Shown piece after piece: positions 3,847-16,394 of a stretch of 46,925 nucleotides of DNA. The first letter of the stretch is position 1; every line of letters begins with the position of its first letter. The DNA lies in NCBI GenBank assembly GCA_964398525.1, contig CAYNMS010000008.1, positions 1 to 46,925 on the forward strand, in the 5' to 3' direction. The DNA comes from an uncultured Pseudomonadales bacterium. GTDB taxonomy: Bacteria; Patescibacteriota; Microgenomatia; UBA1400; CAYNFZ01. The notes under the pieces are model-generated. The model did no database searches, was not told the DNA's origin, and saw nothing but the letters and a program-made list of their open reading frames with translations. The translations under genes were made by a program, and so were the position numbers.

Positions 3847-4882
3847 GAATTTTTTCCCGAACCTTTTTCTCGATTTCTTCCATGAGCTTGGGCTTTTCCT
3901 CTAAGACAGCTTTGGCCCCTTCGCGGCCTTGAGCTAAAACTTCACCTTGGTACTTAAAGAAACTACCGGATTTTTCGATAACATCATGTTCGACGGCAAC
4001 GTCGACTATACCGCCAGATTTGGAAATGCCAGAGACGTTCATGATGTCGAATTCGGCAATTTTAAATGGTGGGGCGATTTTGTTTTTGACAACTTTGGCC
4101 CGGTGACGTGAGCCGACGATTTCGTCGCCATCTTGAATGTTGCCGATTTTACGCATATCGATTCTGACTGAGGCGTAGAACTTGAGAGCTTGGCCGCCAG
4201 TAGTAGTTTCGGGATTGCCAAACATAACGCCGATTTTCATACGCAGTTGGTTGGTAAAAATGACAACGGTTTTAGAGCGATTGATGGCACCGGCTAATTT
4301 GCGCATAGCTTGACTCATGAGCCGAGCCTGAAGACCGATAATGGAATCCCCCATCTCGCCTTCGATTTCAGCTTTGGGAACAAGGGCGGCGACCGAGTCG
4401 ATAACTAGGACGTCGATACCACCGGATCTGATCAGGGTTTCGGCGATTTCTAGTGCTTGCTCGCCGCTGTCAGGTTGAGACATGAGAAGACTGTCGAGAT
4501 TAACCCCGATGGCTTTGGCTCGAACAGGATCGAGGGCATGTTCGGCATCGATGAAAGCAGCGTCACCGCCTTTTTTCTGGGCTTCGGCGATGATATGAAG
4601 ACACAGGGTAGTTTTGCCGGAGGCTTCGGGTCCATAGATTTCCACGATACGGCCTCGAGGAACACCGCCGGCACCGAGGGCTAAGTCTAGGGCAAGGGAA
4701 CCGGTGGGAACGGTGGCAATATTTTTAAGAAGGGCAGCCTGATCGCCAAGACGCATAATGGAACCGGTACCGAATTGTTTTTCAATTTGTTGCATGGCAA
4801 TTTTGACGGCTTCGACACGCTGGCTATCACTGGGGTTTGGTTGTGGCATGACTACCTCTTGGTTTTTCTTAGGTCGACCCAT
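3809..4882 (-). CDS. recA: Recombinase RecA
   Basis: Walker A motif [10 protein letters not shown] plus FIDAEHALD and [15 protein letters not shown] lies upstream of the ATG at 4882. An internal ATG (MPQPNP...) is an alternative start. Confidence 0.95.
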
Positions 4883-4989
4883 ATATCTCCTTTTGGTGAT
4901 TTAGAGTAATATAAACATACTTTTCGGGTAATTACAACCAAATCTTTCTGGTTTTTATTTGGGTTTATTTCTAAGGTATAATGGGCAGA

Positions 4990-5019
4990 TTGACAAGTGA
5001 ATAGATTTGGGCGGAGAAT
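4990..5019 (+). promoter_or_regulatory. Candidate sigma70-like promoter for tRNA-Pro (TTGACA-18 nt-GAGAAT)
   Basis: Perfect -35 hexamer at 4990..4995 and a weak -10 at 5014..5019, 18 nt before the tRNA 5' end. Confidence 0.3.
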
Positions 5020-5036
5020 AAAAATCTCGGCCAAAA

Positions 5037-5107
5037 CGGGGTGTAGTATAGTGGTAGTATTTACGCATGGGGTGCGTAAGGTACAGGTTCGATTCCTGTC
5101 ACCCCGA
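5037..5107 (+). tRNA. tRNA-Pro (anticodon GGG)
   Basis: Folded by hand as a 71-nt cloverleaf: acceptor CGGGGTG/CACCCCG, anticodon stem TACGC/GCGTA, loop AT-GGG-GT with G37, T arm ACAGG-TTCGATT-CCTGT, discriminator A. C1-G72 is typical of tRNA-Pro. No CCA is encoded. Confidence 0.9.
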
Positions 5108-5611
5108 CACTTCGATTTCGCAAGGCGAATGAGAAGTGAGCTGAGCCTGCTGAAGCTCTGAACTATTTGAAGAGCCGAAGCTCATCTCACTAGCTTTGCT
5201 TCACTCAGTGTCTTCGACTCTTTGTTTTCGATTTTTGCTCAGGGTGTACGATGTTTCAACAAGCTCAACATCTTTGACCAATTATTGAATGAGTCGAAGA
5301 GCCTCGAGCGAAACGGGGTGAAGCCTAGAGGCACAGATATTGACTCCACTTAGAGTCTACCCCCTTTCTTATTTTGATTCGGTGGCTTGAGAAGTTGCAA
5401 CTTAGATTAGATTAAATCTATGTATGGCAATTGTGTGATTGGTTTAAATGTTTGCGCTAGCAATAAATATTGACAGAATTATCTCTCTCTTTAAGCTGAA
5501 AAGGAATCGGTCTCAAATTGTCTGTATTTGGTCTGTGATTTTGGGTAACACTTAACTACAGTGAAATATTCCCATGTTGAGAAGCTAGAAAAATCTAATT
5601 TGAGGATAAAT

Positions 5612-5620
5612 TGATATAAT
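5612..5620 (+). promoter_or_regulatory. Extended -10 element TGATATAAT overlapping the first ATG of the 216-aa ORF
   Basis: TGn+TATAAT read directly in the sequence. If it is used, the real start codon would be the ATG at 5640. Confidence 0.3.
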
Positions 5621-6269
5621 GCTTGTCCTAATTTTTGATATGGAAAAAAAATTAAAATTAAATTTGGGGGAAGTTGGATTCCCCCATGCTCATAGATTTA
5701 CTTCCTCTACTGGAATACCTGTACCTTGGAAGGGCTGTGATGGGGTCATTCTTCCCAGACTGATTATTTTTGAAGAGCCAGGAAGTGATTATGACATTCA
5801 TCATGAAATTTACTCAGAAAGAGTTAGGAACTGTAATGGAGAAATTTATTATGGTGATATCTATAAGCCGGAGTCTTTAGAGGAAATTCCACAAATGGGA
5901 CTGCTAGTTCTTGAGAATGTGGTTACAGATCCAGGACAAATCCAGAAAGATTGGTATGGCTTAATTAGATTTTTGGACTCTAAGATAGCACCTGGTGGAC
6001 TTGTATTATTTTCTGATCATATTTATCCTGGATCCTTATATCTTGGGGTTCCCCATGAGGAAATTAGAAAAGAAGTAAGTCAAAGTGACTCATTTGAGGT
6101 ATTGTATTTTGATCCACTGGAAAAGGGGACAGTTGAAGATCACACAAGAGCTCTGAATAATTGTAAAGAAATACTCAATTCTTTGGGCATGATGGATCAA
6201 GCACTCGATTCAGGACTTGATGAATTGCATAAAGTTAATTGGCATTGGTTGATATTGCAGAAAAAGTAG
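5619..6269 (+). CDS. Hypothetical protein (orphan) with weak class I methyltransferase-like motifs
   Basis: 216-aa ORF. IIFEEPGSDYD, LLVLENVV and KIAPGGLVLFSD resemble SAM-methyltransferase motifs I, IV and post-IV. This is motif-level resemblance only. Confidence 0.5.
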   Translation: MLVLIFDMEKKLKLNLGEVGFPHAHRFTSSTGIPVPWKGCDGVILPRLIIFEEPGSDYDIHHEIYSERVRNCNGEIYYGDIYKPESLEEIPQMGLLVLENVVTDPGQIQKDWYGLIRFLDSKIAPGGLVLFSDHIYPGSLYLGVPHEEIRKEVSQSDSFEVLYFDPLEKGTVEDHTRALNNCKEILNSLGMMDQALDSGLDELHKVNWHWLILQKK

Positions 6270-6292
6270 GCATTACTTTCCTTAATAATAAC

Positions 6293-6361
6293 CGACAAGA
6301 GTTTCTCCTGAGGGGATTTTTGATGTCCTTATACAAAAGTAGAATCTCTTGAGAAATCTGG
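6293..6361. repeat. Island repeat type C, copy 1
   Basis: 47 of 69 positions identical to 7041..7109 in an ungapped hand alignment. Shared blocks are AGGGGATTTTTG, AAGTAG and CTCTTGAG. Confidence 0.7.
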
Positions 6362-6364
6362 TTA

Positions 6365-6640
6365 TTACTTGTTCTTAAATTCTCGATCCACGCTTTGACT
6401 CAGAAACATTTTCATCAGAGATTGGTACGGCACATCTTTTTTATTAGCAAGTTGTTTAATTCTCATCAACAAATGAGACGGCAACCTTAAGGAAATAGAT
6501 TCTGTTGAAGGTTTTAAGTTTGATAAGTCTAATTCTACTGACTTTGACCAATCAACATAATCAGTTGAATCATGAGTTGCCCAAAACTCTCGCTCTTCAT
6601 CTTCGTTTTTGAATTGTGGAATTGGTTTAAGCTTTGTCAT
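6365..6640 (-). CDS. brnA: BrnA-type antitoxin (CopG/RHH-like)
   Basis: 91 aa. FKNEDEEREFWATHDSTDYVDW followed by a C-terminal RHH-like segment. Overlaps brnT by 14 nt. Confidence 0.8.
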   Translation of the reverse strand: MTKLKPIPQFKNEDEEREFWATHDSTDYVDWSKSVELDLSNLKPSTESISLRLPSHLLMRIKQLANKKDVPYQSLMKMFLSQSVDREFKNK

Positions 6641-6920
6641 AGATATTTTTCTCCTTTTTATTCATATCTCTTATGGAGATAATCCTAATTTTATTACTTC
6701 TGATTGTATATGAGACAAATAATTTACGATTATCATTTGTTTCCCCAAGAGCTTGAAAGCGCAATTCCTTTCCTGAGTGCTTTTCATCTAATACTGAAAG
6801 AAAAGGCTTATTAAAGAAAACTTCTTCAGCTTCCTTTGCGTCTACTTTATGTTTCTGCCAGTTTTTATCTTTGTTTCCAGTATCCCATTCAAAAGTAATT
6901 GGCCTCGGTAATTTCTTCAT
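6627..6920 (-). CDS. brnT: BrnT-type ribonuclease toxin (DUF497)
   Basis: FEWDTGNKDKNWQKHKVDAKEAEEVF signature. Start trimmed to MKKLPRP at 6920, because the track's upstream extension to 6983 runs through the non-coding repeat also found at 10218..10266. Confidence 0.8.
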   Translation of the reverse strand: MKKLPRPITFEWDTGNKDKNWQKHKVDAKEAEEVFFNKPFLSVLDEKHSGKELRFQALGETNDNRKLFVSYTIRSNKIRIISIRDMNKKEKNIYDKA

Positions 6921-6966
6921 TGCATTTAGTATATTATGATAATATACTGATGTCAATTTGCTATAG

Positions 6967-7016
6967 TTCCGAATTAAACACAAAGGTTCTACTTTAGTCC
7001 TACGCTAAGGCTTCGG
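6967..7016. repeat. Island repeat type A, copy 1
   Basis: Aligns with 10218..10266. The core AAAGGTTCTACTTTAGTCCTACGCT is identical over 25 nt (6982..7006 versus 10232..10256). Confidence 0.85.
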
Positions 7017-7040
7017 AATTACACAGTCGGTCACAATATT

Positions 7041-7109
7041 CGACTCATGATTCTCTCCAGGGGATTTTTGGAACTATTGTACATAAGTAGGACCTCTTGA
7101 GGGATCCAG
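7041..7109. repeat. Island repeat type C, copy 2
   Basis: See 6293..6361. It contains AAGTAGGACCT (7085..7095), whose reverse complement matches 10 of 11 positions of AGGTTCTACTT (6984..6994). Confidence 0.7.
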
Positions 7110-7133
7110 CGACATTTCTGATAATATCAATAT

Positions 7134-8276
7134 ATGTCAGATTCAAGCGAAGGTGTGCCCGCATCCTTAAGAGATAAAATTGTTAGAAGTATTGATGGTC
7201 AAAAGCCAAGCTGGAAAAATGTTTTGTCAAGAAAAGTTGTTGGACGAAGAAGTTCAGTAGATAGTTACCCTGAAAAGATCGAGGAGATACCTGCTACGGC
7301 ACCAGCTCAAGAGCAGTCAACTTCGACTGAAATTAACTTTTCTCCCATAATAGAGTACTTTTATGAGCTAGGGAAAAAGCCGTTAGTCTCCCTAGAGAAA
7401 ATGATTGGTATTCCTGAGGGAAGTCGTTCACAAGGCAATGTTATTGCTAATTTAGTGGCTAATAATTGTTTTGAGGAAGAGACGGAAACAAGCTTTATTG
7501 AACAAGGTTTAGATGGTCACCTAATTGGTGTGGGAGCTGCAAGCATTTTCTGTATGATTGAAGGATTTAGTGAATGTCAATCATTTACCGGTATTGATGT
7601 TCATCCTAGCCCCGTTGCTATTGGAAGAGTTATTACTGAATTACTGGGTGAGAATGACACCTTTGAAGATTTTTTTACTTCGTTAAGTGACGAAGACAAG
7701 CTCAAAGACAAACTAGAAGAGATGGGTTTACCAGAGGGATATTTTGATGAAACTGCACAGAGTGTTAAAGATGCAATTACTCAATACAATAAAGTCAAAA
7801 GCAGCTACCCAGGAATGCGAGCAGAGGGATTTAATGTTCACAATATGGACAAGAAAAATCTCTTTCCACTCAAGTCTATAGAGAGGCATTATAAAGAATT
7901 CATGAACTTAGCTAGATCAGGCAATATGCATTTTATCCAGGCAGATTTCCTTGATTCAACTGTATGGAGGGGCTTAAATCGAGCCGCTCCACAAATAAAA
8001 GATGCTAATAATTTAATATTTTGCAGTAATGCTATTGATCATGAATTCCGATCAAGGTTCGAGAAGTGGGACCAATGGTCTCAAAACGGAAAAGTTAATA
8101 TGGCAATCTCTGAACAAGTTGCTCTTGGAGGAGCGACTGCTTTTAACTTTGCAGATTGGGAATCCAGTAGATTCGTATTCACTTTGACAAGTCTAAGATA
8201 CGAGTTACAGCTAACAGATGAACCACCTGTTTATGGCTATGATGAACAACAAGGTCGTCCAACTCTTATTAACTAA
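7134..8276 (+). CDS. Hypothetical protein (orphan): disordered N-terminus plus divergent Rossmann/SAM-methyltransferase-like domain
   Basis: 380-aa ORF. LIGVGAASIF...FTGIDVHPSPVAI...MHFIQADFLD...NLIFCSNAIDHEF occur in the order of class I methyltransferase motifs I, II, III and IV. Confidence 0.55.
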   Translation: MSDSSEGVPASLRDKIVRSIDGQKPSWKNVLSRKVVGRRSSVDSYPEKIEEIPATAPAQEQSTSTEINFSPIIEYFYELGKKPLVSLEKMIGIPEGSRSQGNVIANLVANNCFEEETETSFIEQGLDGHLIGVGAASIFCMIEGFSECQSFTGIDVHPSPVAIGRVITELLGENDTFEDFFTSLSDEDKLKDKLEEMGLPEGYFDETAQSVKDAITQYNKVKSSYPGMRAEGFNVHNMDKKNLFPLKSIERHYKEFMNLARSGNMHFIQADFLDSTVWRGLNRAAPQIKDANNLIFCSNAIDHEFRSRFEKWDQWSQNGKVNMAISEQVALGGATAFNFADWESSRFVFTLTSLRYELQLTDEPPVYGYDEQQGRPTLIN

Positions 8277-8321
8277 AACTTATTCCCGTACTGAATTCCG
8301 AACCGGCTTGCGTATGAAGAG

Positions 8322-8383
8322 TTCTACCCCTTCGACTAACTGCGCTCGCTTAGGATCTATGACTTTCGTTCACGATATTCGAC
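8322..8383. repeat. Island repeat type B, copy 1
   Basis: 57 of 62 nt identical to 9769..9830 by hand alignment. Starts 45 nt after the stop of the 380-aa ORF. Confidence 0.9.
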
Positions 8384-8494
8384 TCAGAGAATAGATTAAG
8401 AATTCTCGATCTGGGATTTGGAAAATTTGATTTTTACCCAAATGTTGTGTGAAATTTTCATTCTTGAGGAAAGACTTTAAGAGGAGATTGGAAA

Positions 8495-9733
8495 TTGAGC
8501 CTCTTGAGGAATGTTAATTTGGCATATAATATTTTGGTGAAAACTAGATCTCTTAAAAGTAATCTTCAAGTTGCATATTTCTTATCATTTGTTAGTCAGT
8601 TATTTTTTCCAATCGCCATTTGGTTGTTTTTTTACTCCAAGTTTTTGGATTTTAAACAAATCGCTCTAATGACTGCTGTGGGAAGTATCGCCACCATACT
8701 TTTTGAAATCCCAACAGGTGCTTTTGCCGATATTGTGGGCAGGAAAAAAGCCATCGTATTATCTTATTTATTGTTTGCTGTGAGTATGTTGCTGACAGCA
8801 TATTCTCAAACTTTTATAGTCTTTGTTTTATTGGGAGTGGCGAGCGCTCTGGTTAATGCTTTGTATTCTGGAAGTCTTGAAGCACTTGTTTATGACACCT
8901 TAAAAGAGTCAGGGAGAGAAGTAGAATATGACCAAGTGATTTCTAGGATGGATGCTATCGCATGGTTGGGCCTGTTCGTGGGTTCAGTAACGGGAGGGTT
9001 TTTGTTTGCAGTTTCTTACAGATTACCTTTTTTAGCACAGGCTTTGATTACATTTCTGGCTTCTATTTTTGCACTTAAACTAAGCGAGCCTTCTATTGAT
9101 TCAGAGAAACATAAGTTGAGCGACTTTGTTGTTCAAAACACTAAGGGATTCAGAGAACTGTTTCACAGTCGAGCAACTACTAGATTGGTTATAATTTTTA
9201 TTACTATTGGTGCAGGTTATGATATTGCTGCTTCGATTCTTGGAATTTCTCAGGCAAAAGAATATGGAATTGCTCCTGAGATTGTGGGAATCATTTTTGC
9301 AGCCGGATATATCATTTCAGCATTAGCGTCTCATTTTTATCCAATGCTGAGATTAGTCTTAAATAACAAGGCAATTTTGTTGGTTGCTGTTACAGCTTTG
9401 CTTTCAAGCTTTTTGCTGGCTCAATTTGTTGGAGTTATGTTGGGAGCTGGATTAATTATTCTTCGGATTTCAAGTTCTACCTTGTTTAGAAATACTAGGT
9501 CAGTAATGCTAAATCCTTTCTTTTCTTCCAAAAATCGAGCTACCGCACTATCAACCATAAATTTGTTAACAATACTTCCCTACGCGTTGCTGGCTTATTT
9601 CATTGGAGACTATATGGATAAATCATCCCCAAATTCATTTGCTTTTCTTTTGGGCATAGGAATTGCATTTTCTCTATTGTTTACAGAAATACTTTTCTGG
9701 TTCGTTGAGAGATCAAAAAGATCTATTAATTAG
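8495..9733 (+). CDS. MFS transporter
   Basis: 412 aa with about 12 hydrophobic segments and the MFS loop motif GAFADIVGRKKA. TTG start preceded by GAGGAG. Confidence 0.85.
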   Translation: MSLLRNVNLAYNILVKTRSLKSNLQVAYFLSFVSQLFFPIAIWLFFYSKFLDFKQIALMTAVGSIATILFEIPTGAFADIVGRKKAIVLSYLLFAVSMLLTAYSQTFIVFVLLGVASALVNALYSGSLEALVYDTLKESGREVEYDQVISRMDAIAWLGLFVGSVTGGFLFAVSYRLPFLAQALITFLASIFALKLSEPSIDSEKHKLSDFVVQNTKGFRELFHSRATTRLVIIFITIGAGYDIAASILGISQAKEYGIAPEIVGIIFAAGYIISALASHFYPMLRLVLNNKAILLVAVTALLSSFLLAQFVGVMLGAGLIILRISSSTLFRNTRSVMLNPFFSSKNRATALSTINLLTILPYALLAYFIGDYMDKSSPNSFAFLLGIGIAFSLLFTEILFWFVERSKRSIN

Positions 9734-9768
9734 TTTAGTCTGGTAGACAGCCCAACTTAACTCAAATA

Positions 9769-9830
9769 TTCTACCCTTTCGACTCATTGCGCTCGCTCAG
9801 GATCTATGACTTTCGTTCACAATATTCGAC
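9769..9830. repeat. Island repeat type B, copy 2
   Basis: 57 of 62 nt identical to 8322..8383. Starts 35 nt after the MFS stop. Confidence 0.9.
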
Positions 9831-9889
9831 AGATCTCCTAAGGACTTTCAATTCTAATGCGAAATTGATAGAATCAAATCCTGACAGAC

Positions 9890-10207
9890 ATGCTTTTAGT
9901 GTATATAACCTGCGACAGTGTGGACCAAGCAAAAGGTATTGCTAATCATTTAATGGATAAGAGACTTTGTGCTTGTGTGAATATATTCCCAGAAATGCAA
10001 CCAATGTTCTTTTGGCCACCAAAGTCGGGCAAAATCGATGTGAGTAAAGAAGTGGTATTGATTGCCAAAACGGTTGAATCAAAATATCAGGAGTTGGAGA
10101 AAGAAGTGACTAAAATTCATAGTTACGAAGTGCCTTGTATCTTTGCCATTCCGGTGACCCACGTGGCCAAATCTTATTACGACTGGTTAGTTGGAGAAAT
10201 GGAATAG
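9890..10207 (+). CDS. cutA: Divalent-cation tolerance protein CutA
   Basis: 105 aa. RLCACVNIFP...FFW...VLIAKT...IHSYEVPCIFAIPV...YYDWL matches the CutA1 pattern. Confidence 0.85.
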   Translation: MLLVYITCDSVDQAKGIANHLMDKRLCACVNIFPEMQPMFFWPPKSGKIDVSKEVVLIAKTVESKYQELEKEVTKIHSYEVPCIFAIPVTHVAKSYYDWLVGEME

Positions 10208-10217
10208 GTTTCTCATC

Positions 10218-10266
10218 TTCGAACTAAACAAAAAGGTTCTACTTTAGTCCTACGCTGAAGCTTCGT
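10218..10266. repeat. Island repeat type A, copy 2
   Basis: See 6967..7016. Starts 10 nt after the cutA stop. Confidence 0.85.
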
Positions 10267-10297
10267 AAGGGCAATGCAATATCCGACCCTGTTTGAA

Positions 10298-10321
10298 ATG
10301 ACCCTAGGAAGGGTCATTTTT
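10298..10321 (+). terminator. Rho-independent terminator after cutA (ATGACCCT-AGGA-AGGGTCAT-TTTT)
   Basis: Perfect 8-bp stem, 4-nt loop and T run, read directly. Confidence 0.7.
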
Positions 10322-10467
10322 GTCTGGTACTTTCAGTTCTTTTAGAATGTGTTGTGAATTATTGCTTCTTGAGGAACTTTTTTTGAAAGGCTACTGGAAT
10401 CGAACCCTTCGAGAACACTTATCCCTAAACAATACCAAAAAGTGAAGAGAATTTTTCTGGGTTGAAA

Positions 10468-10815
10468 CTAAGTTTGTGGGTTCAACAAATGGTTCCATCC
10501 TTCTCTTTGTCTTTCGTCCAAATACAATCTGTGATAATTGCCAGCTTGAGTAACAATAAAAGGCTCGCTATCCCAAGATAGATAGAGATCCTCTTTTCTT
10601 TGTCGGGCCAAGTCTTTCATTGGTTCAACTATCAGACTAATTTGATCGCCTGCCATGACTTCCGAAACAATAGGGTCTTCTGAAGTCCCATCTCCTCTCA
10701 TTTTAATGCTTCGACCCTCTGACTCGTTAAACAGAAAATACTCTCTGTACTTAGAGTCTAATTTTTGAGTCAGTACTTGATCAATAATCCATCTTGGTGA
10801 TTCAATTGATCTCAT
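10468..10815 (-). CDS. Hypothetical protein (orphan)
   Basis: 115-aa ORF with no recognisable motif. It is the only long ORF in its region. Confidence 0.45.
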   Translation of the reverse strand: MRSIESPRWIIDQVLTQKLDSKYREYFLFNESEGRSIKMRGDGTSEDPIVSEVMAGDQISLIVEPMKDLARQRKEDLYLSWDSEPFIVTQAGNYHRLYLDERQREGWNHLLNPQT

Positions 10816-10942
10816 AAATAATTTCAGTTAAATAGTAATTGATGCATCAAAGTATATCATTCATACGTATCCAAAATCATGCTGAACTCGCCGGGTTTAT
10901 TCTGAATCAAATTATCAAATAAGGTCTTCTTTCATACACTAG

Positions 10943-11155
10943 CCTAGACAAAACAAGTCTGCTATTAGGCCTTTATTTATTTGGTTTCGCGGGCCTGAGA
11001 TAATTGAAAAAAGTTCTCCTAACTCAATTGCTTTTTTATTAGGTGCGGATATAGTGTTTGCTTTAATGCTAGAAAACGTAGTTTTCTGGTTTATTAGCAG
11101 AACTAGGAAGATTTCTAAATTGCTTGATAGATTGAAGATAATGGGTATGTTGTGA
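10943..11155 (+). pseudogene. 3' remnant of an MFS transporter paralog
   Basis: Hand translation gives ...EKSSPNSIAFLLGADIVFALMLENVVFWFISRTRKISK...*. This aligns with the C-terminus of the 8495..9733 protein (DKSSPNSFAFLLGIGIAFSLLFTEILFWFVERSKRSIN), 16 of 35 identical. There is a TAG upstream at 10940 and no start or N-terminal domains. Confidence 0.65.
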
Positions 11156-11241
11156 ATGAATTTTAAATGTTTGGATGTAAGGCAAAGGCTGAGACTAGAC
11201 CTGCAAACTAGAAAAAATTTATTTTGTGTAAAATGATGTAG

Positions 11242-11988
11242 ATGAAGATTACACTTTTACAGTGGAATGTGTGGACAAAGGAAAAGCCAGAAAAGGTGGT
11301 AAGTTTGATCAGATCCGTTGACCCTGATATTGCTTGTTTGCAAGAACTTACGATTAGACCTAAATCAAGTGGTTTGTTGGATGTGCCCGAGTTTTTGGCA
11401 AATGAACTGGAATATAAACACCACTACATCACTGCCCATGAGTGGCAAACTGATGCGGGACCTAAAAAGCAGGGAAATGGGATATTTTCGAGATTTGCAA
11501 TTGAGAATAAAAGACACAAATTTGTTCAAGTACCGTCTAAGGAAATTTCGAGAGATTATTCAGACGAAGGCAGAGTGTTGGTGAAGGGAGATATACTATT
11601 AGATAAAAAGAGAATAACGGTAGTAACAACTCATTTGTCATATACAGACAGATTTGTTGAGAATGAGAAAAAATTGACAGAAGAGGAAAACCTAATTAGA
11701 GAGTTGAAAACAATTAAGGGAAAGTTGATTTTTGCAGGAGATTTAAATACGACAGAGAATTCTTACTTGGTAAGACAATTGGATCAACTGATGGTTTCAG
11801 CCGGACCAGACTATGGCAACAAAACTTGGACCACCAAACCATTTGAATATATGGGGTTTGTGGAAGATAAGTTGGCATGGAGACTTGATTATGTGTTTGT
11901 CAGCAAAGACATAAAAGTACTTAAGAGTAAAATAATTGATACTAACTTTTCGGACCACTTGCCGATTTTGGTGGAAGTGGAGATTTAG
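11242..11988 (+). CDS. Endonuclease/exonuclease/phosphatase (EEP) family protein
   Basis: 248 aa. LLQWNVW...DIACLQE...GDLN...SDHLPILVEV are EEP catalytic motifs. Confidence 0.85.
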   Translation: MKITLLQWNVWTKEKPEKVVSLIRSVDPDIACLQELTIRPKSSGLLDVPEFLANELEYKHHYITAHEWQTDAGPKKQGNGIFSRFAIENKRHKFVQVPSKEISRDYSDEGRVLVKGDILLDKKRITVVTTHLSYTDRFVENEKKLTEEENLIRELKTIKGKLIFAGDLNTTENSYLVRQLDQLMVSAGPDYGNKTWTTKPFEYMGFVEDKLAWRLDYVFVSKDIKVLKSKIIDTNFSDHLPILVEVEI

Positions 11989-12026
11989 GTATCATTAATT
12001 TAAATTTGGAGTGATATACTGGCCAT

Positions 12027-12467
12027 ATGAAAATTGGGGTGGATTTTGTGGGGGTGAGTACGTCATTTTACTGTAATGATGGTAGGGGTAATTACTTATT
12101 GCATAAGCGAGGTAAGAATTGCAGGGATGAAGTCGGAAAATGGGATCCGGGTGGTGGAAAGTTGGAGTTTGGACTAACACTAGAGGAAAATGTCTTGAAA
12201 GAAGTAAGAGAGGAATACGGATGTGAAGGAACAATTCAAAGAAAATTGCCTGCATATAACTTGATAAGAATAAAAGGGAATCTTGAAACTCATTGGGTAG
12301 TGATTCCTTTTTTAGTGCTGGTTAAGAAAAGCGAGGTAAGGAATAATGAACCGGAAAAAATTGAAGAAATGGGATGGTTTAGGATAAATGAACTGCCAGA
12401 GCCGTTACATCCCGGAATTTTCTATACTTTAAAACACAATAAAGAGTATTTGTTGGATCAGAGTTAA
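12027..12467 (+). CDS. NUDIX hydrolase
   Basis: Nudix box GGGKLEFGLTLEENVLKEVREEYG. Confidence 0.85.
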   Translation: MKIGVDFVGVSTSFYCNDGRGNYLLHKRGKNCRDEVGKWDPGGGKLEFGLTLEENVLKEVREEYGCEGTIQRKLPAYNLIRIKGNLETHWVVIPFLVLVKKSEVRNNEPEKIEEMGWFRINELPEPLHPGIFYTLKHNKEYLLDQS

Positions 12468-12491
12468 AGAAGGTCATGAAATGAGGATTAG

Positions 12492-12926
12492 ATGAAAATT
12501 TCTAAAGCACTGGTGGCGCCAATTAACAATGAAGGACAGATTCTGTTGCAGGATAGGGAAGGGTTTTTGCCTCCGCCGTGGGGATATTTTGGGGGATCTG
12601 TAGAAAAAGGAGAAACGACAATAGAGGCAGCTATTAGAGAAATTGAAGAAGAGTTGGGAGTGAAGTTGAAAACCGGAGATTTGATGGAGGTAGGTAAATT
12701 TGTAGCCAGACTTGAAGGTGGAAAAGAGATTGTGAACTTTGTATATATTTGGAGGATTAACCATAAGCTTGATGAATTGAAGTTAAATGAGGGAAAAGCG
12801 ATGAAATATGTAAGTTTTGATGAGGCAAAGAGGTTACTCACATTTGGAGCGGATAAAGAGATTTTGGAGGCGGTGAAAAAGATGGTGGGATCAAAAAAAG
12901 ATAAATTGCCAGAGGATTCGATCTAG
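12492..12926 (+). CDS. NUDIX hydrolase
   Basis: Nudix box GGSVEKGETTIEAAIREIEEELG. Confidence 0.85.
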   Translation: MKISKALVAPINNEGQILLQDREGFLPPPWGYFGGSVEKGETTIEAAIREIEEELGVKLKTGDLMEVGKFVARLEGGKEIVNFVYIWRINHKLDELKLNEGKAMKYVSFDEAKRLLTFGADKEILEAVKKMVGSKKDKLPEDSI

Positions 12927-13019
12927 CTGTCAGGTGAGAAGTAGATAAACTGAGAGTGAATTATCTTTGCGTTTTTATTACACTGTTGAGGAGATCAATA
13001 AGTAGTACAGGAGGAAGAC

Positions 13020-13241
13020 ATGAAGCTTCCAAAAAATATTTTGTTACTGTTGGCCGGACTCATGCTGTTGGCAGGATGTAATACGGTACCATCTGAAGAG
13101 ATGAATACCGAAACCGGAATAGAAACACAACAGGATCAAACTCAAGAAGTCGATTGGCAAACTATGGAAGAAGAGCAATATCAGGATGATATGGAAGCAG
13201 AACAAATGGAAAGCGAAGACGAAGTAATGATGGAACAGTAG
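13020..13241 (+). CDS. Small acidic Met/Glu/Asp/Gln-rich lipoprotein
   Basis: Signal peptide with lipobox LLAGC. The mature part is about 50 aa and strongly acidic. Confidence 0.6.
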   Translation: MKLPKNILLLLAGLMLLAGCNTVPSEEMNTETGIETQQDQTQEVDWQTMEEEQYQDDMEAEQMESEDEVMMEQ

Positions 13242-13276
13242 GAAACATTAGGTATTAGGATACAGGGGATAGTAAG

Positions 13277-14965
13277 ATGTTACTGGTCGGGTTTGCCTTT
13301 ATTGCAGGATTGGTAACGGTACTGTCCCCTTGTATTTTACCGATATTACCGCTAGTACTGTCAGTCTCGGTAGGAGAGGGTAAAAGAAGACCTTGGGGGG
13401 TAGTGGTAGGTTTTGTGGCAAGTTTTGTATTTTTTACACTGTTTTTGGCAAGTTTAGTAAAGTGGTTTGGGATATCGGCTGATGTGTTAAGGCATGTATC
13501 TGTTGTTATGATCGGGTTATTTGGTATGTCGCTATTGATACCAAAGACTCAGGTAATTCTGGAAAGTTTGTTTAGTAGTCTGAGCAAATATATTCCTAAA
13601 AAACAGAGACAAGGTTTTGGGGGAGGAGTGTTACTTGGGATATCTTTAGGACTGATTTGGACTCCGTGTGTGGGGCCAATTTTGGCTTCGGTAATTGCGC
13701 TGGCATTGACGGGGACTGTGTCTGGAATAGCGGTGGTGATTACACTGGCTTATGCAACTGGAACAGCAATTCCGATGCTTTTGATCATGTATGGGAGTAA
13801 AGGTTTGATGGCAAAGATGCCTGTTTTAAGACAGAATTCAGCAAAAATTCAAAAAGTGTTTGGAATAGTAATGATAGGGGTGGCGGTGGCAATTTTTTTG
13901 GGCTGGGATAGACAGTTTCAAACTTGGATATTGGATAGATTTCCGGGCTATGGAACGGGTCTGACGGCAATTGAGGACAATGAGTTGGTCAAAAATCAGT
14001 TGGAATCATTGAGTGGAGAAGGTCTAGAAGGGGGTTTGCTATTTGAAATTCAAGAGGCAATGAATTATCCAGTAGCACCGGAATTGGTGGGTGGAACGGG
14101 TTGGATTAATTCTGAACCACTAAAAATTCATGAAGAGTTGAAGGGAAAGGTGGTGTTGGTAGATTTTTGGACCTATTCGTGTATCAACTGTATTCGGACA
14201 CTACCGTATTTGACTCAATGGTATGAAAAATACAAAGATGAAGGCTTGGTAATTGTGGGAGTGCATGCACCTGAATTTGAGTTTGAAAAAGAGCGGGAAA
14301 ATGTGATTGAAGCCATGAAAGATTTTGGGGTTTTGTATCCAGTGGTTCAAGATAATGAATTTAGGATTTGGAGAGCTTACGAAAACCGCTATTGGCCAGC
14401 AAAATATCTAATCGATAAACAAGGAAGAATTGTGTACACCCATTTTGGTGAAGGTGCATATCAAGAAACTGAGGAAAAGATTGTGGAACTTTTGGGAGCA
14501 GAGGTAGAGATAGCGGTTGAGCTGGATGAGAAAAAGAGAAAACAGACTCCAGAAATATATTTGGGGTTTGGGAGAGCTCAAGATTATGTGGCAGAGTTGA
14601 GGATAGCTGAGAATGAGGTGGCAGAGTATAGTTTTTTGGAGACCAGATCGGATGAAGTGGGGCTAAGAGGCAAGTGGAGAGTGGAGGAAGAAAGAATAAT
14701 AGCCGAAGAAAACGGGGCAGAATTGGAACTGAATTTCTTAGGTCAACAGGTGTATTTAGTAATGAAAACCAGGGAAAATGAGGGTGAAGTGGAAGTGTGG
14801 TTAGATGGAGAGCGGGTTTTAGAGACTGGTGATACACAAGATGGAGTAATTAAAGTAGAAAAGCCGAGAAAGTATGATGTGGCGGAAAGTGATTATGGGC
14901 GTCACCAGCTGAGATTGGTGTTTGATGAAGGGGTGAGTGCTTACGCGTTTACTTTTGGAAGTTAG
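13277..14965 (+). CDS. DipZ-like protein: CcdA/DsbD transmembrane domain fused to a thioredoxin-like domain
   Basis: N-terminal multi-TM region with Cys in TM1 and TM4 (LSPCILP, WTPCVGP). Periplasmic redoxin domain with WTYSCINC. A C-terminal beta-rich domain follows. Confidence 0.8.
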   Translation: MLLVGFAFIAGLVTVLSPCILPILPLVLSVSVGEGKRRPWGVVVGFVASFVFFTLFLASLVKWFGISADVLRHVSVVMIGLFGMSLLIPKTQVILESLFSSLSKYIPKKQRQGFGGGVLLGISLGLIWTPCVGPILASVIALALTGTVSGIAVVITLAYATGTAIPMLLIMYGSKGLMAKMPVLRQNSAKIQKVFGIVMIGVAVAIFLGWDRQFQTWILDRFPGYGTGLTAIEDNELVKNQLESLSGEGLEGGLLFEIQEAMNYPVAPELVGGTGWINSEPLKIHEELKGKVVLVDFWTYSCINCIRTLPYLTQWYEKYKDEGLVIVGVHAPEFEFEKERENVIEAMKDFGVLYPVVQDNEFRIWRAYENRYWPAKYLIDKQGRIVYTHFGEGAYQETEEKIVELLGAEVEIAVELDEKKRKQTPEIYLGFGRAQDYVAELRIAENEVAEYSFLETRSDEVGLRGKWRVEEERIIAEENGAELELNFLGQQVYLVMKTRENEGEVEVWLDGERVLETGDTQDGVIKVEKPRKYDVAESDYGRHQLRLVFDEGVSAYAFTFGS

Positions 14966-15746: not shown

Positions 15747-16394
15747 GTGTTTGGTTTAGTTTCGGGTTTAAATAAGGGGGTGGTTAAGATTCTGACATAT
15801 TTTAAAGAAATTGATCCAGTTATGTATAAAGCAGCAAGAGAATTTGGTGTGGATGAAATTGTTAAACTCAAAAAAGAAGATTATTTTAGTAAGCTAGTGC
15901 GAGCGATTGTGGGACAACAATTGTCGACAAAAGCGGCAACGACAATTAATGATCGGTTGTCGAAATTGCTTGATGATCGAGTAGAACCGGAAATTATATG
16001 GAAAACGAATGACGAATTGTTGAGAGGAGTGGGCTTGTCTAGGGCTAAAGGTGTATACATCAAGGATCTAGCGCGCCACTACCTTGAGGGGTTGATAGCT
16101 TGGGAGAGACTAGAAATGATGGAAGATGAGGTGGTGATAACGGAATTGATTAAAGTTAAGGGGATAGGCAGATGGACAGCGGAGATGTTTTTGATGTTCA
16201 CATTAGGAAGAGCGGATGTTTTTTCGGTTGGTGATTTGGGGCTTAGACGAGCGATGGAAAGAATATATGAATTGGAAAATCCCAGTGAAGCACAATTGTT
16301 GGCGATGAGCGAGAAATGGTCGCCTTATAGAACTTATGCCAGTATGGTTTTGTGGAGAAGTTTAGATAAAGTTAACAAAACGAAAACAGTTTGA
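15747..16394 (+). CDS. DNA-3-methyladenine glycosylase II / HhH-GPD family
   Basis: VKGIGRWTAEMFLMF...VGDLGLRR is a HhH-GPD motif. The start codon is uncertain (GTG at 15747). Confidence 0.8.
   Translation: MFGLVSGLNKGVVKILTYFKEIDPVMYKAAREFGVDEIVKLKKEDYFSKLVRAIVGQQLSTKAATTINDRLSKLLDDRVEPEIIWKTNDELLRGVGLSRAKGVYIKDLARHYLEGLIAWERLEMMEDEVVITELIKVKGIGRWTAEMFLMFTLGRADVFSVGDLGLRRAMERIYELENPSEAQLLAMSEKWSPYRTYASMVLWRSLDKVNKTKTV

Follow-up and report, generated by a model that had tools for sequence, protein, structure and literature searches.

Background

Cis-mobilizable elements (CIMEs) are recombinase-less elements that have accreted in tandem at tRNA genes (PMC5704250, section 2.3). Tandem accretion at tRNA genes is likewise described for the tycheposon islands of Prochlorococcus (bioRxiv 10.1101/2020.12.28.424599), and accretion of the same kind for the ssrA islands of Dehalococcoides (PMC3146451). 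The pdif modules of Acinetobacter plasmids are small, often encode toxin-antitoxin systems and are moved by XerC/XerD at 28-bp sites (11-6-11) of alternating orientation (PMC13141974). Here we analyse a 510-bp non-coding stretch (positions 5108-5618) that follows a tRNA-Pro(GGG) gene in a member of the Patescibacteria and precedes an array of small accessory genes. The analysed DNA, from here on the window, is 46,925 nt long and constitutes contig C8 of a genome of 1.28 Mb in 63 contigs with a completeness rating of 100%.

With moderate confidence we interpret the 510 bp as the composite left border of a strain-variable, recombinase-less array of accessory genes that is anchored behind tRNA-Pro(GGG), the border consisting of an anchor and a duplication scar. 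Co-occurring strains keep positions 5109-5304 and differ in whole gene units beyond. The stretch is built from this fixed hairpin-bearing spacer, a diverged duplicate of the tRNA border and the leader of a swappable gene.

As in the CIMEs, tycheposons and ssrA islands portrayed in the cited texts, accessory DNA is stacked right behind a tRNA gene, the units lack a recombinase of their own and are separated by repeats, older copies decay as they are displaced inward, and whole units distinguish the strains of a population. Within the island, decayed tRNA copies, which are a hallmark of CIMEs and tycheposons, occur here at 5302-5343 and at about 10385-10440. The units of those islands are, according to the same sources, bounded by direct copies of the tRNA 3' end (att) and accompanied in at least some cases by an integrase, whereas the array studied here has neither. 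Unlike the 3'-end copies of CIMEs and tycheposons, the material repeated here comes from the leader and 5' half of the tRNA and from the spacer and hairpin behind it. Classical accretion by tRNA 3' ends was accordingly ruled out, there being no 3'-end copy in the window.

The resemblance to pdif modules, as characterised in PMC13141974, lies in small gene modules, toxin-antitoxin pairs among them, that are bounded by short sites and in a recombinase encoded elsewhere; the only tyrosine recombinases of this genome are Xer-like. Unlike pdif sites, the four boundary repeats of the array (A1, B1, B2 and A2; Table 1) are all direct, and no 28-bp site was seen on comparison by reading with Table 1 of that article, which rules out a set of pdif modules. 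Judging by titles and abstracts, such an array is described neither in four papers on integrons and attC sites in Patescibacteria nor in the 10 listed of 69 papers on tRNA islands with strain-level differences in bacteria of the candidate phyla radiation (CPR).

Results

Strains diverge inside the stretch

Part of the region 4700-10500 is contained in 20 of the 22 listed public sequencing runs (11 studies). Strains were compared using the Logan contigs of the runs X5, X9, X11 and X12, which stem from four studies, none of them flagged as a possible source. X11 is labelled RNA-Seq but flagged 'probably DNA', and the parts of the stretch that X12 leaves uncovered reflect low depth.

Two forms of the border were found in X5. 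A variant at a depth of 33.5 covers about 5090-5305 with five differences from the reference (5124, 5151, 5166, 5185 and 5222) and ends there, and a reference-type contig spanning 5275-5643 is also present at a depth of 4.9. A further X5 contig (1771 nt, depth 39.8) joins 5304, with a reservation given below, to the A1 sequence 6967-7044, followed by six other letters and then by 6303-6926. The joint 7044->6303 with the identical six letters was also found in X11. The X9 contigs carry 5091-5443 in the reference form with one difference, and in them A1 (to 7046) is joined to 10317 via 28 letters resembling the tail after A2; hence, the units of 7047-10288 are missing in X9.

The first slot of the array is therefore occupied by two unrelated segments with sharp limits in strains of one sample (X5), and at the contig level units are gained or lost between strains at site boundaries (joints 5304, 7044/6303 and 7046/10317 in X5, X11 and X9). 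Because the strains diverge from 5305 onwards, the start of the variable part is not 5618 but a point within the stretch, 196 nt behind the tRNA. The initial annotation of this DNA had asked whether variable cassettes start immediately 3' of the region in other genomes. Its comparison of the stretch with an integron attI platform holds as an analogy, in that a kept segment adjoins a variable one; as a statement of membership it fails, for want of an integrase and of attC-like folds.

A decayed second copy of the tRNA-Pro border

The break point 5304|5305 coincides within 3 nt with the junction (5301/5302) to a sequence that resembles the beginning of the tRNA locus. Segment 5302-5343 corresponds to the 11 nt before the tRNA, the 5' strand of the acceptor stem (7/7 bases identical) and the D arm. 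Its local alignment with 5026-5065 has a score of 32, which none of 2000 dinucleotide shuffles and none of 2322 contig windows reached, and its best match among the 44 tRNA loci of the genome is tRNA-Pro(GGG). The adjoining segment 5344-5441 aligns with the H3 hairpin region (Table 1) at a score that 5 of 2000 shuffles and 3 of 1734 control windows from the genome attained, and this segment has lost the hairpin (fold z -0.11). Since both segments align with the corresponding parts of the locus (5026-5065 and 5198-5291), 5302-5441 is, on the evidence of these alignments, a strongly diverged second copy of the unit 5026-5301 from which about 132 nt (tRNA 3' half, H1 and H2) are missing. We suggest that these ~140 nt are a scar that remained when DNA which carried or duplicated the border was added behind it. 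No third copy of the tRNA locus was detectable in 5445-5618, and no inverted copies of tRNA 3' ends beyond shuffled controls occur downstream of the 44 tRNA genes.

These alignments bear on two earlier proposals. Positions 5332-5364 had been regarded as fragments of the island repeats; they do resemble the 3' end of those repeats, but are better explained as part of the decayed tRNA-Pro copy. The idea of a pile-up of decayed att scars survives in altered form, because the decayed copies exist and none of them is a copy of the tRNA 3' end. At the opposite end of the array lies another tRNA-like sequence (10385-10440) that scores 30.5-35.5 against tRNA loci, with none of 1000 shuffles as good, and is not called by ARAGORN or Rfam. 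It falls into a 69-nt segment (10384-10452) that is skipped or replaced in the X5 and X9 contigs.

A duplication of this kind could also be debris. In this somewhat unlikely alternative, a local tandem duplication of tRNA-Pro decayed in place, the hairpins are leftovers, strain differences arose by ordinary homologous recombination or deletion involving similar repeats and common flanks, and neither spacer nor hairpin has a role. The loss of the hairpin from the duplicate fits this explanation, as do the lack of a homologue of the stretch in 286 genomes of the order and of a recombinase nearby. The sharp-edged, unrelated segments in the first slot of strains from a single sample speak against it; folding and repeats, treated below, provide arguments on both sides.

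Coordinates of the features are compiled in Table 1.

Table 1. Features of the tRNA-Pro(GGG) locus and the adjoining accessory-gene array (positions refer to the window)
Feature	Position	Strand	Remarks
Sigma-70-like promoter ahead of tRNA-Pro	4990..5019	+	TTGACA, 18 nt, GAGAAT; 10/12 consensus positions
tRNA-Pro(GGG)	5037..5107	+	ARAGORN; Rfam RF00005, 61 bits vs cut-off 29
Fixed spacer ('platform') with hairpins H1, H2 and H3	5109..5304	no strand	Common to co-occurring strains
H1	5117-5129		TTCGC-AAG-GCGAA
H2	5135-5191		12-nt arms 5135-5146 and 5180-5191, 11/12 bases complementary
H3, imperfect hairpin of 90 nt	5211..5300	+	Perfect 10-bp outer stem
Strain break point 5304|5305	5301..5308		6 nt after TCGAA of H3 right arm
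Decayed copy of tRNA-Pro leader (11 nt) and tRNA 5' half	5302..5343	+	vs 5026-5065
Decayed copy of H3 region	5344..5441	+	vs 5198-5291, score 35.5
AT-rich upstream DNA of first accessory gene	5442..5618	+	GC 0.32-0.36; ordinary fold ranks; without significant likeness to tRNA locus
First accessory gene, 216 aa	5619..6269	+	Without Pfam family; ATG at 5640 may be start
Unit-end motif AATAACCGAC after first gene	6287..6296	+	Strain-variant identity resumes 6 nt later, at 6303
Boundary repeat A1	6967..7044	+	Ends in AATATTCGAC; limits 6967 and 7044 from X5 and X11 joints
Boundary repeat B1	8322..8383	+	92% identical to B2
Boundary repeat B2	9769..9830	+	
Boundary repeat A2	10220..10287	+	Followed by hairpin and T-run
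Decayed tRNA-like sequence at right end of array	10385..10440	-	D-loop and T-arm motifs

Structure is concentrated in hairpin H3

The stretch contains no start-to-stop open reading frame (ORF) of 60 aa or more, as the initial annotation had stated; the longest stop-to-stop frames overlapping it have 109, 68 and 60 aa, and Pfam gave nothing above cut-off for seven open frames of 5108-5618. All inverted repeats listed in that annotation exist, with small shifts for two of them: H1 lies at 5117-5129 rather than 5116-5128, and the first arm of H2 at 5135-5146 rather than 5134-5145. The outer stem of H3, in which TCTTCGACTC (5211-5220) pairs with GAGTCGAAGA (5291-5300), was given correctly and contains TTCGACTC plus its reverse complement. 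An 11-mer reverse-complement match to a type B repeat is also real, at 9778-9788, about one such match being expected by chance between 510 nt and the 5-kb island.

Folded as RNA, the whole stretch reached z -1.89 on the plus strand (4/100 shuffles as good) and -2.49 on the minus strand (1/100). Most of this resides in 5200-5310, with -34.3 kcal/mol and z -3.43 on the plus strand and -31.2 kcal/mol and z -2.70 on the minus strand, each matched by 2 of 200 shuffles. The neighbouring parts were less pronounced (plus strand: 5109-5200, z -1.61, 13/200 shuffles as good; 5300-5375, z -1.65, 11/200), and with DNA parameters 5200-5310 was not above shuffles (z -0.71 and -1.84). Among 2230 non-ORF windows of 110 nt from the genome, the one at 5201 ranks 30th on the plus and 101st on the minus strand, whereas eight windows starting at 5326-5501 rank 392-1136 on the plus strand; the AT-rich half from about 5366 is unstructured. 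Thus, 'strongly structured' is true of H3 alone, weakly so of H1 and H2 and untrue of the AT-rich second half. Likewise, 'dense in nested inverted repeats' describes the first 200 nt, chiefly one hairpin, and not the second half. That most of the stretch folds no better than other non-coding DNA agrees with neutral debris; that H3 is within the 30 best-folding windows does not.

RNA genes and conservation

Spacer RNAs cut from the 3' ends of tRNA transcripts, the 3' external transcribed spacers (3'ETS), exist in other bacteria, for example 3'ETS-leuZ of E. coli. The first 200-270 nt might similarly be transcribed together with tRNA-Pro as a structured 3' trailer, with H3 above all as a processing site, a barrier that keeps read-through out of the accessory genes, or a small RNA released from the trailer. 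We regard this as distinctly unlikely. The resemblance to 3'ETS RNAs is that structured sequence adjoins the tRNA in the same orientation, and H3 indeed lies on the strand of the tRNA, its RNA on the plus strand being the best of the four H3 folds tested. No terminator was predicted by a terminator scan between tRNA-Pro and 6304, the first T-rich tract being 5363-5376, and several other tRNAs of the genome have a conserved small hairpin motif behind them. However, the minus strand folds nearly as well, and unlike 3'ETS RNAs the sequence is not conserved and over half of it belongs to the strain-variable segment. Nor do the five single-nucleotide polymorphisms (SNPs) of the X5 variant give a sign of constraint: three of the five fall on unpaired positions of the minimum-energy fold, in which 37% of positions are unpaired overall (not significant), and one of the other two breaks a pair.

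Searches for an RNA family and for relatives gave the same picture. Only the tRNA (RF00005) passes the Rfam thresholds over the stretch; the runner-up, at 27.8 bits versus a cut-off of 52, overlaps the tRNA. In a DNA search of 61 relatives, 43 genomes matched, all within the tRNA part only. With the island as query, 89 of 286 genomes of the order matched in brnTA, cutA and the gene of a major facilitator superfamily (MFS) transporter, not in the 510-nt stretch, and the query 5195-5375 found as its best non-self match in the 286 genomes 26 nt with an E value of 3.7e-4, which is at noise level. No paralogue of the stretch exists elsewhere in its own genome and no match was obtained in a plasmid collection. 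A metagenome search with the last 23 nt of the tRNA yielded 70 loci which, by BLAST, all have only the tRNA in common with the window. The proposal of a structured non-coding RNA (ncRNA) thus finds no support in the Rfam result, in conservation among relatives or in the SNPs, which do not significantly avoid paired positions.

The pattern TTCGACTC-N55-85-GAGTCGAA occurs in 5 of 285 other genomes of the order, and so does the reversed control, which is chance level. In one of them (G185) the match shares an inner stretch of 23 nt with H3 (1/1000 shuffles as good), which BLAST did not recover; it may be a possible analogue only. There, the 3' half of a tRNA-Tyr is repeated directly and perfectly over 49 nt on either side of an insert of ~270 nt (L137, G185:C25, 6575-7060), the TTCGACTC...GAGTCGAA hairpin comes immediately afterwards, and several places of the same contig carry repeats of 48-112 nt that form a family of their own.

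Boundary repeats and the TCGA core

The motif TTCGACTC occurs 34 times in the genome, five of them within 5000-10500 (two being the H3 arms), corresponding to a ~30-fold local enrichment. The pattern [AG]ATA[TA][TC]CGAC has 16 matches in the genome, five of them in the array, where one closes each of the five gene units. In the reference, the limit 6302|6303 lies 6 nt after CCGAC, and at the corresponding point the variant carries TTCGAC and 6 nt. The six letters that follow TTCGAC in X9 consist of the first two of the A1 spacer and the last four of the A2 spacer. With three junctions only, this register is no more than compatible with a crossover inside the 6-nt spacer.

For neutral debris, the local enrichment of the core and the occurrence of two break points in one register, 6 nt past the TCGA core, are difficult. 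In its favour, A1 and A2 are ~90% alike over 46-49 nt, which is enough for a homology deletion as in X9. The main competing explanation to recombination at the unit ends is homologous exchange that uses the repeats and the shared flanks, and we consider a site-specific process, as opposed to a homologous or illegitimate one, to be a tentative option that falls somewhat short of probable.

None of the boundary repeats resembles tRNA-Pro itself above shuffles, other tRNAs scoring higher, and Rfam found no tRNA-like match to them in 6000-10900. Fold z values on the plus strand were -1.73 for A1, -1.51 for A2, +0.82 for B1 and +1.06 for B2, those on the minus strand +0.69, -1.87, +1.44 and -0.20, respectively. 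When the repeats with their flanks were compared with the platform, the score of B1 was reached by 12, that of B2 by 25 (weak) and that of A1 by 50 (marginal) of 1000 shuffles.

Short hairpins accompany these sites. Two similar hairpin-plus-T-run sequences (TTCTCC...GGGGATTTTTG) follow the unit-end motifs of the first gene (6303-6322) and of A1 (7051-7073), and comparable ones stand after A2 and, weaker, after B1 and B2. Another small hairpin, with a variable stem of 5-7 bp and a conserved loop of ~14 nt (T[AT]CGC[TC]AA[AG]GCTTC), is located in A1 (6998-7020) and A2 (10248-10270). It recurs within 100 nt after five tRNA genes of this genome (on contigs including C4, C12 and C39) and, with 86-95% identity, in ten loci examined in other genomes (among L109-L126), five of which lie within 50 nt of a tRNA gene. 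Its stem shows compensatory changes and it has no Rfam match.

The tRNA-Pro site in related genomes

The gene order HU-rny-recX-recA-tRNA-Pro(GGG) is retained in two genomes from the same family. In one (L106, G001:C30, 9081-10410), a two-ORF IS3-like transposase begins a few bases after tRNA-Pro, and the distance from tRNA-Pro to the glycosylase gene (at 15747 in the window) is 2 kb, versus 10.6 kb here. In the other (L105, G003:C5), the contig ends exactly at the end of tRNA-Pro. Throughout the family, the position behind tRNA-Pro seems to be a hot spot for insertions.

In three genomes of another family (L132 in G077, L133 in G089 and L134 in G107), tRNA genes for Thr, Val and Glu each have behind them a terminator hairpin whose loop is CTTGT and then an inverted copy of the T-arm of the tRNA itself; at least two of them have a direct copy of the tRNA tail ~150 nt further on. 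These loci look like mini-insertions or emptied integration sites.

Genes and composition of the array

Upstream of tRNA-Pro, recA and recX are encoded on the minus strand. Downstream follow the 216-aa gene, a BrnT/BrnA pair on the minus strand, a gene for an unknown protein of 380 aa, the MFS transporter, CutA and further small genes. A homologue of the 216-aa gene was found in only one of the 285 other genomes of the order. The GC content is 0.34-0.39 across 6001-12000 (the array) versus 0.44-0.48 in the flanks.

Several array units appear to possess their own promoters according to the promoter scan. The promoter ahead of tRNA-Pro is a consensus match only, the scan as a whole having yielded no more sites than shuffles. 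At 5612-5620, TGATATAAT looks like an extended -10 box when read by eye; the scan did not call it. Just upstream of brnT, a near-perfect 19-nt palindrome (6919-6957) overlaps a sigma-70-like promoter on the minus strand (11/12), and the two are probably the promoter and operator through which brnTA regulates itself; brnT probably starts further downstream than the annotated TTG at 6983. A direct repeat of 31 nt with 81% identity at 8441-8471, upstream of the MFS gene, and at 10346-10376, after the array, may be a shared promoter or operator. Over 1-46925 the GC skew is positive in all 1-kb bins but one (maximum +0.50), and the cumulative skew climbs almost unbroken; hence, the whole contig lies on one replichore with an unusually strong strand asymmetry.

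Discussion

The array shares several properties with integrons and with clusters of attC sites lacking integron-integrases (CALIN), namely a fixed platform, a variable first slot adjoining it, short one-directional unit-end sites and a toxin-antitoxin unit. It differs from integrons in having no integron integrase, no attC-type hairpin folding, other core sequences, apparent own promoters for several units and a tRNA as anchor. Integron core sites follow a GTTRRRY-type consensus, and no such cores were seen in the sequence. That the stretch is a genuine attI site on which an integron integrase acts is extremely improbable: the directional units, the toxin-antitoxin unit on the opposite strand and the variable first slot beside the platform would suit it, but there is no intI nearby, the boundary repeats do not fold as hairpins, and the two tyrosine recombinases of the genome, Xer-like and located on other contigs, reach 122 and 65 bits versus a cut-off of 265 for the integron integrase model TIGR02249. 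Integron membership is refuted by the lack of the integrase and of attC-like hairpins.

Matches to the recombinase families PF00589 and PF00239 are confined to contigs C1, C3 and C21 of the genome, one large serine recombinase adjoins tRNA-Gly on another contig, and a motif search found no canonical dif site in the genome.

Our interpretation of the stretch as a composite border can be put as follows. The 196 nt of 5109-5304 are a fixed spacer, ending in a 90-nt hairpin with the TCGA core in its arms, and a TCGA-type core, (T/C)CGAC, also closes each of the five array units. The last ~180 nt belong to the first accessory gene as its AT-rich leader, including promoter DNA. This anatomy is well supported, and the duplication and the strain differences at these points are likewise shown, whereas the mechanism is inferred. 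Recombination at the unit ends, some 6 nt beyond the core and with the platform as anchor, would bring gene units in, exchange them and remove them. As there is no recombinase in the array, an enzyme encoded elsewhere would have to act in trans, and the hairpin itself may have a role.

Several observations weigh against this interpretation. The strain evidence consists of assembled metagenome contigs, not of reads. At the X5 joint 5304->6967, the left side comprises only 30 letters, the part between is entered as 'between: not known' and 1147 letters stand before 6303, so that the contig would overlap the platform by 30 nt, continue with other sequence for about 1 kb and then reach an A-type repeat. 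Homologous recombination in shared flanks would yield the same strain pattern. The unit-end pattern and the rule of 6 nt after the core were defined post hoc from only three break points. The likeness between repeats and platform is weak (p ~0.01-0.05, with several tests run), A2 and the repeat R1 show none, and in A1, A2, B1 and B2 neither dyad symmetry nor, on either strand, folding above shuffles was seen. The terminal 20 nt of tRNA-Pro, with up to 3 mismatches allowed, occur nowhere in the window but in the gene. Finally, there is no recombinase in or beside the array, the 11 proteins scanned (5619-14965) having no Pfam recombinase domain, and nothing ties the Xer-like or serine recombinases of the genome to the tRNA-Pro site.

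A more far-reaching proposal, which we consider improbable, is that the H3 platform and the unit ends of the form TCGA(A/C)+6 are docking sites of an undescribed trans-acting recombination system that stacks and swaps units behind tRNA genes in Patescibacteria. Such a system, as improbable as the proposal itself, would be a functional counterpart of the integron without integron integrase, attC hairpins or, here, tRNA 3'-end copies.

Conclusions

For annotation, the lesson is that this 'structured' spacer should not be called an ncRNA; over half of it consists of a decayed duplicate and the leader of a swappable gene. In CPR bacteria, gene content varies between strains although the genomes are tiny and contain few mobile elements that can be recognised. 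If an enzyme encoded elsewhere does exchange small units at fixed positions behind tRNA genes, this exchange would explain how these bacteria maintain a flexible gene pool, and position 5304/5305 together with the unit ends would be a concrete, testable site of it.

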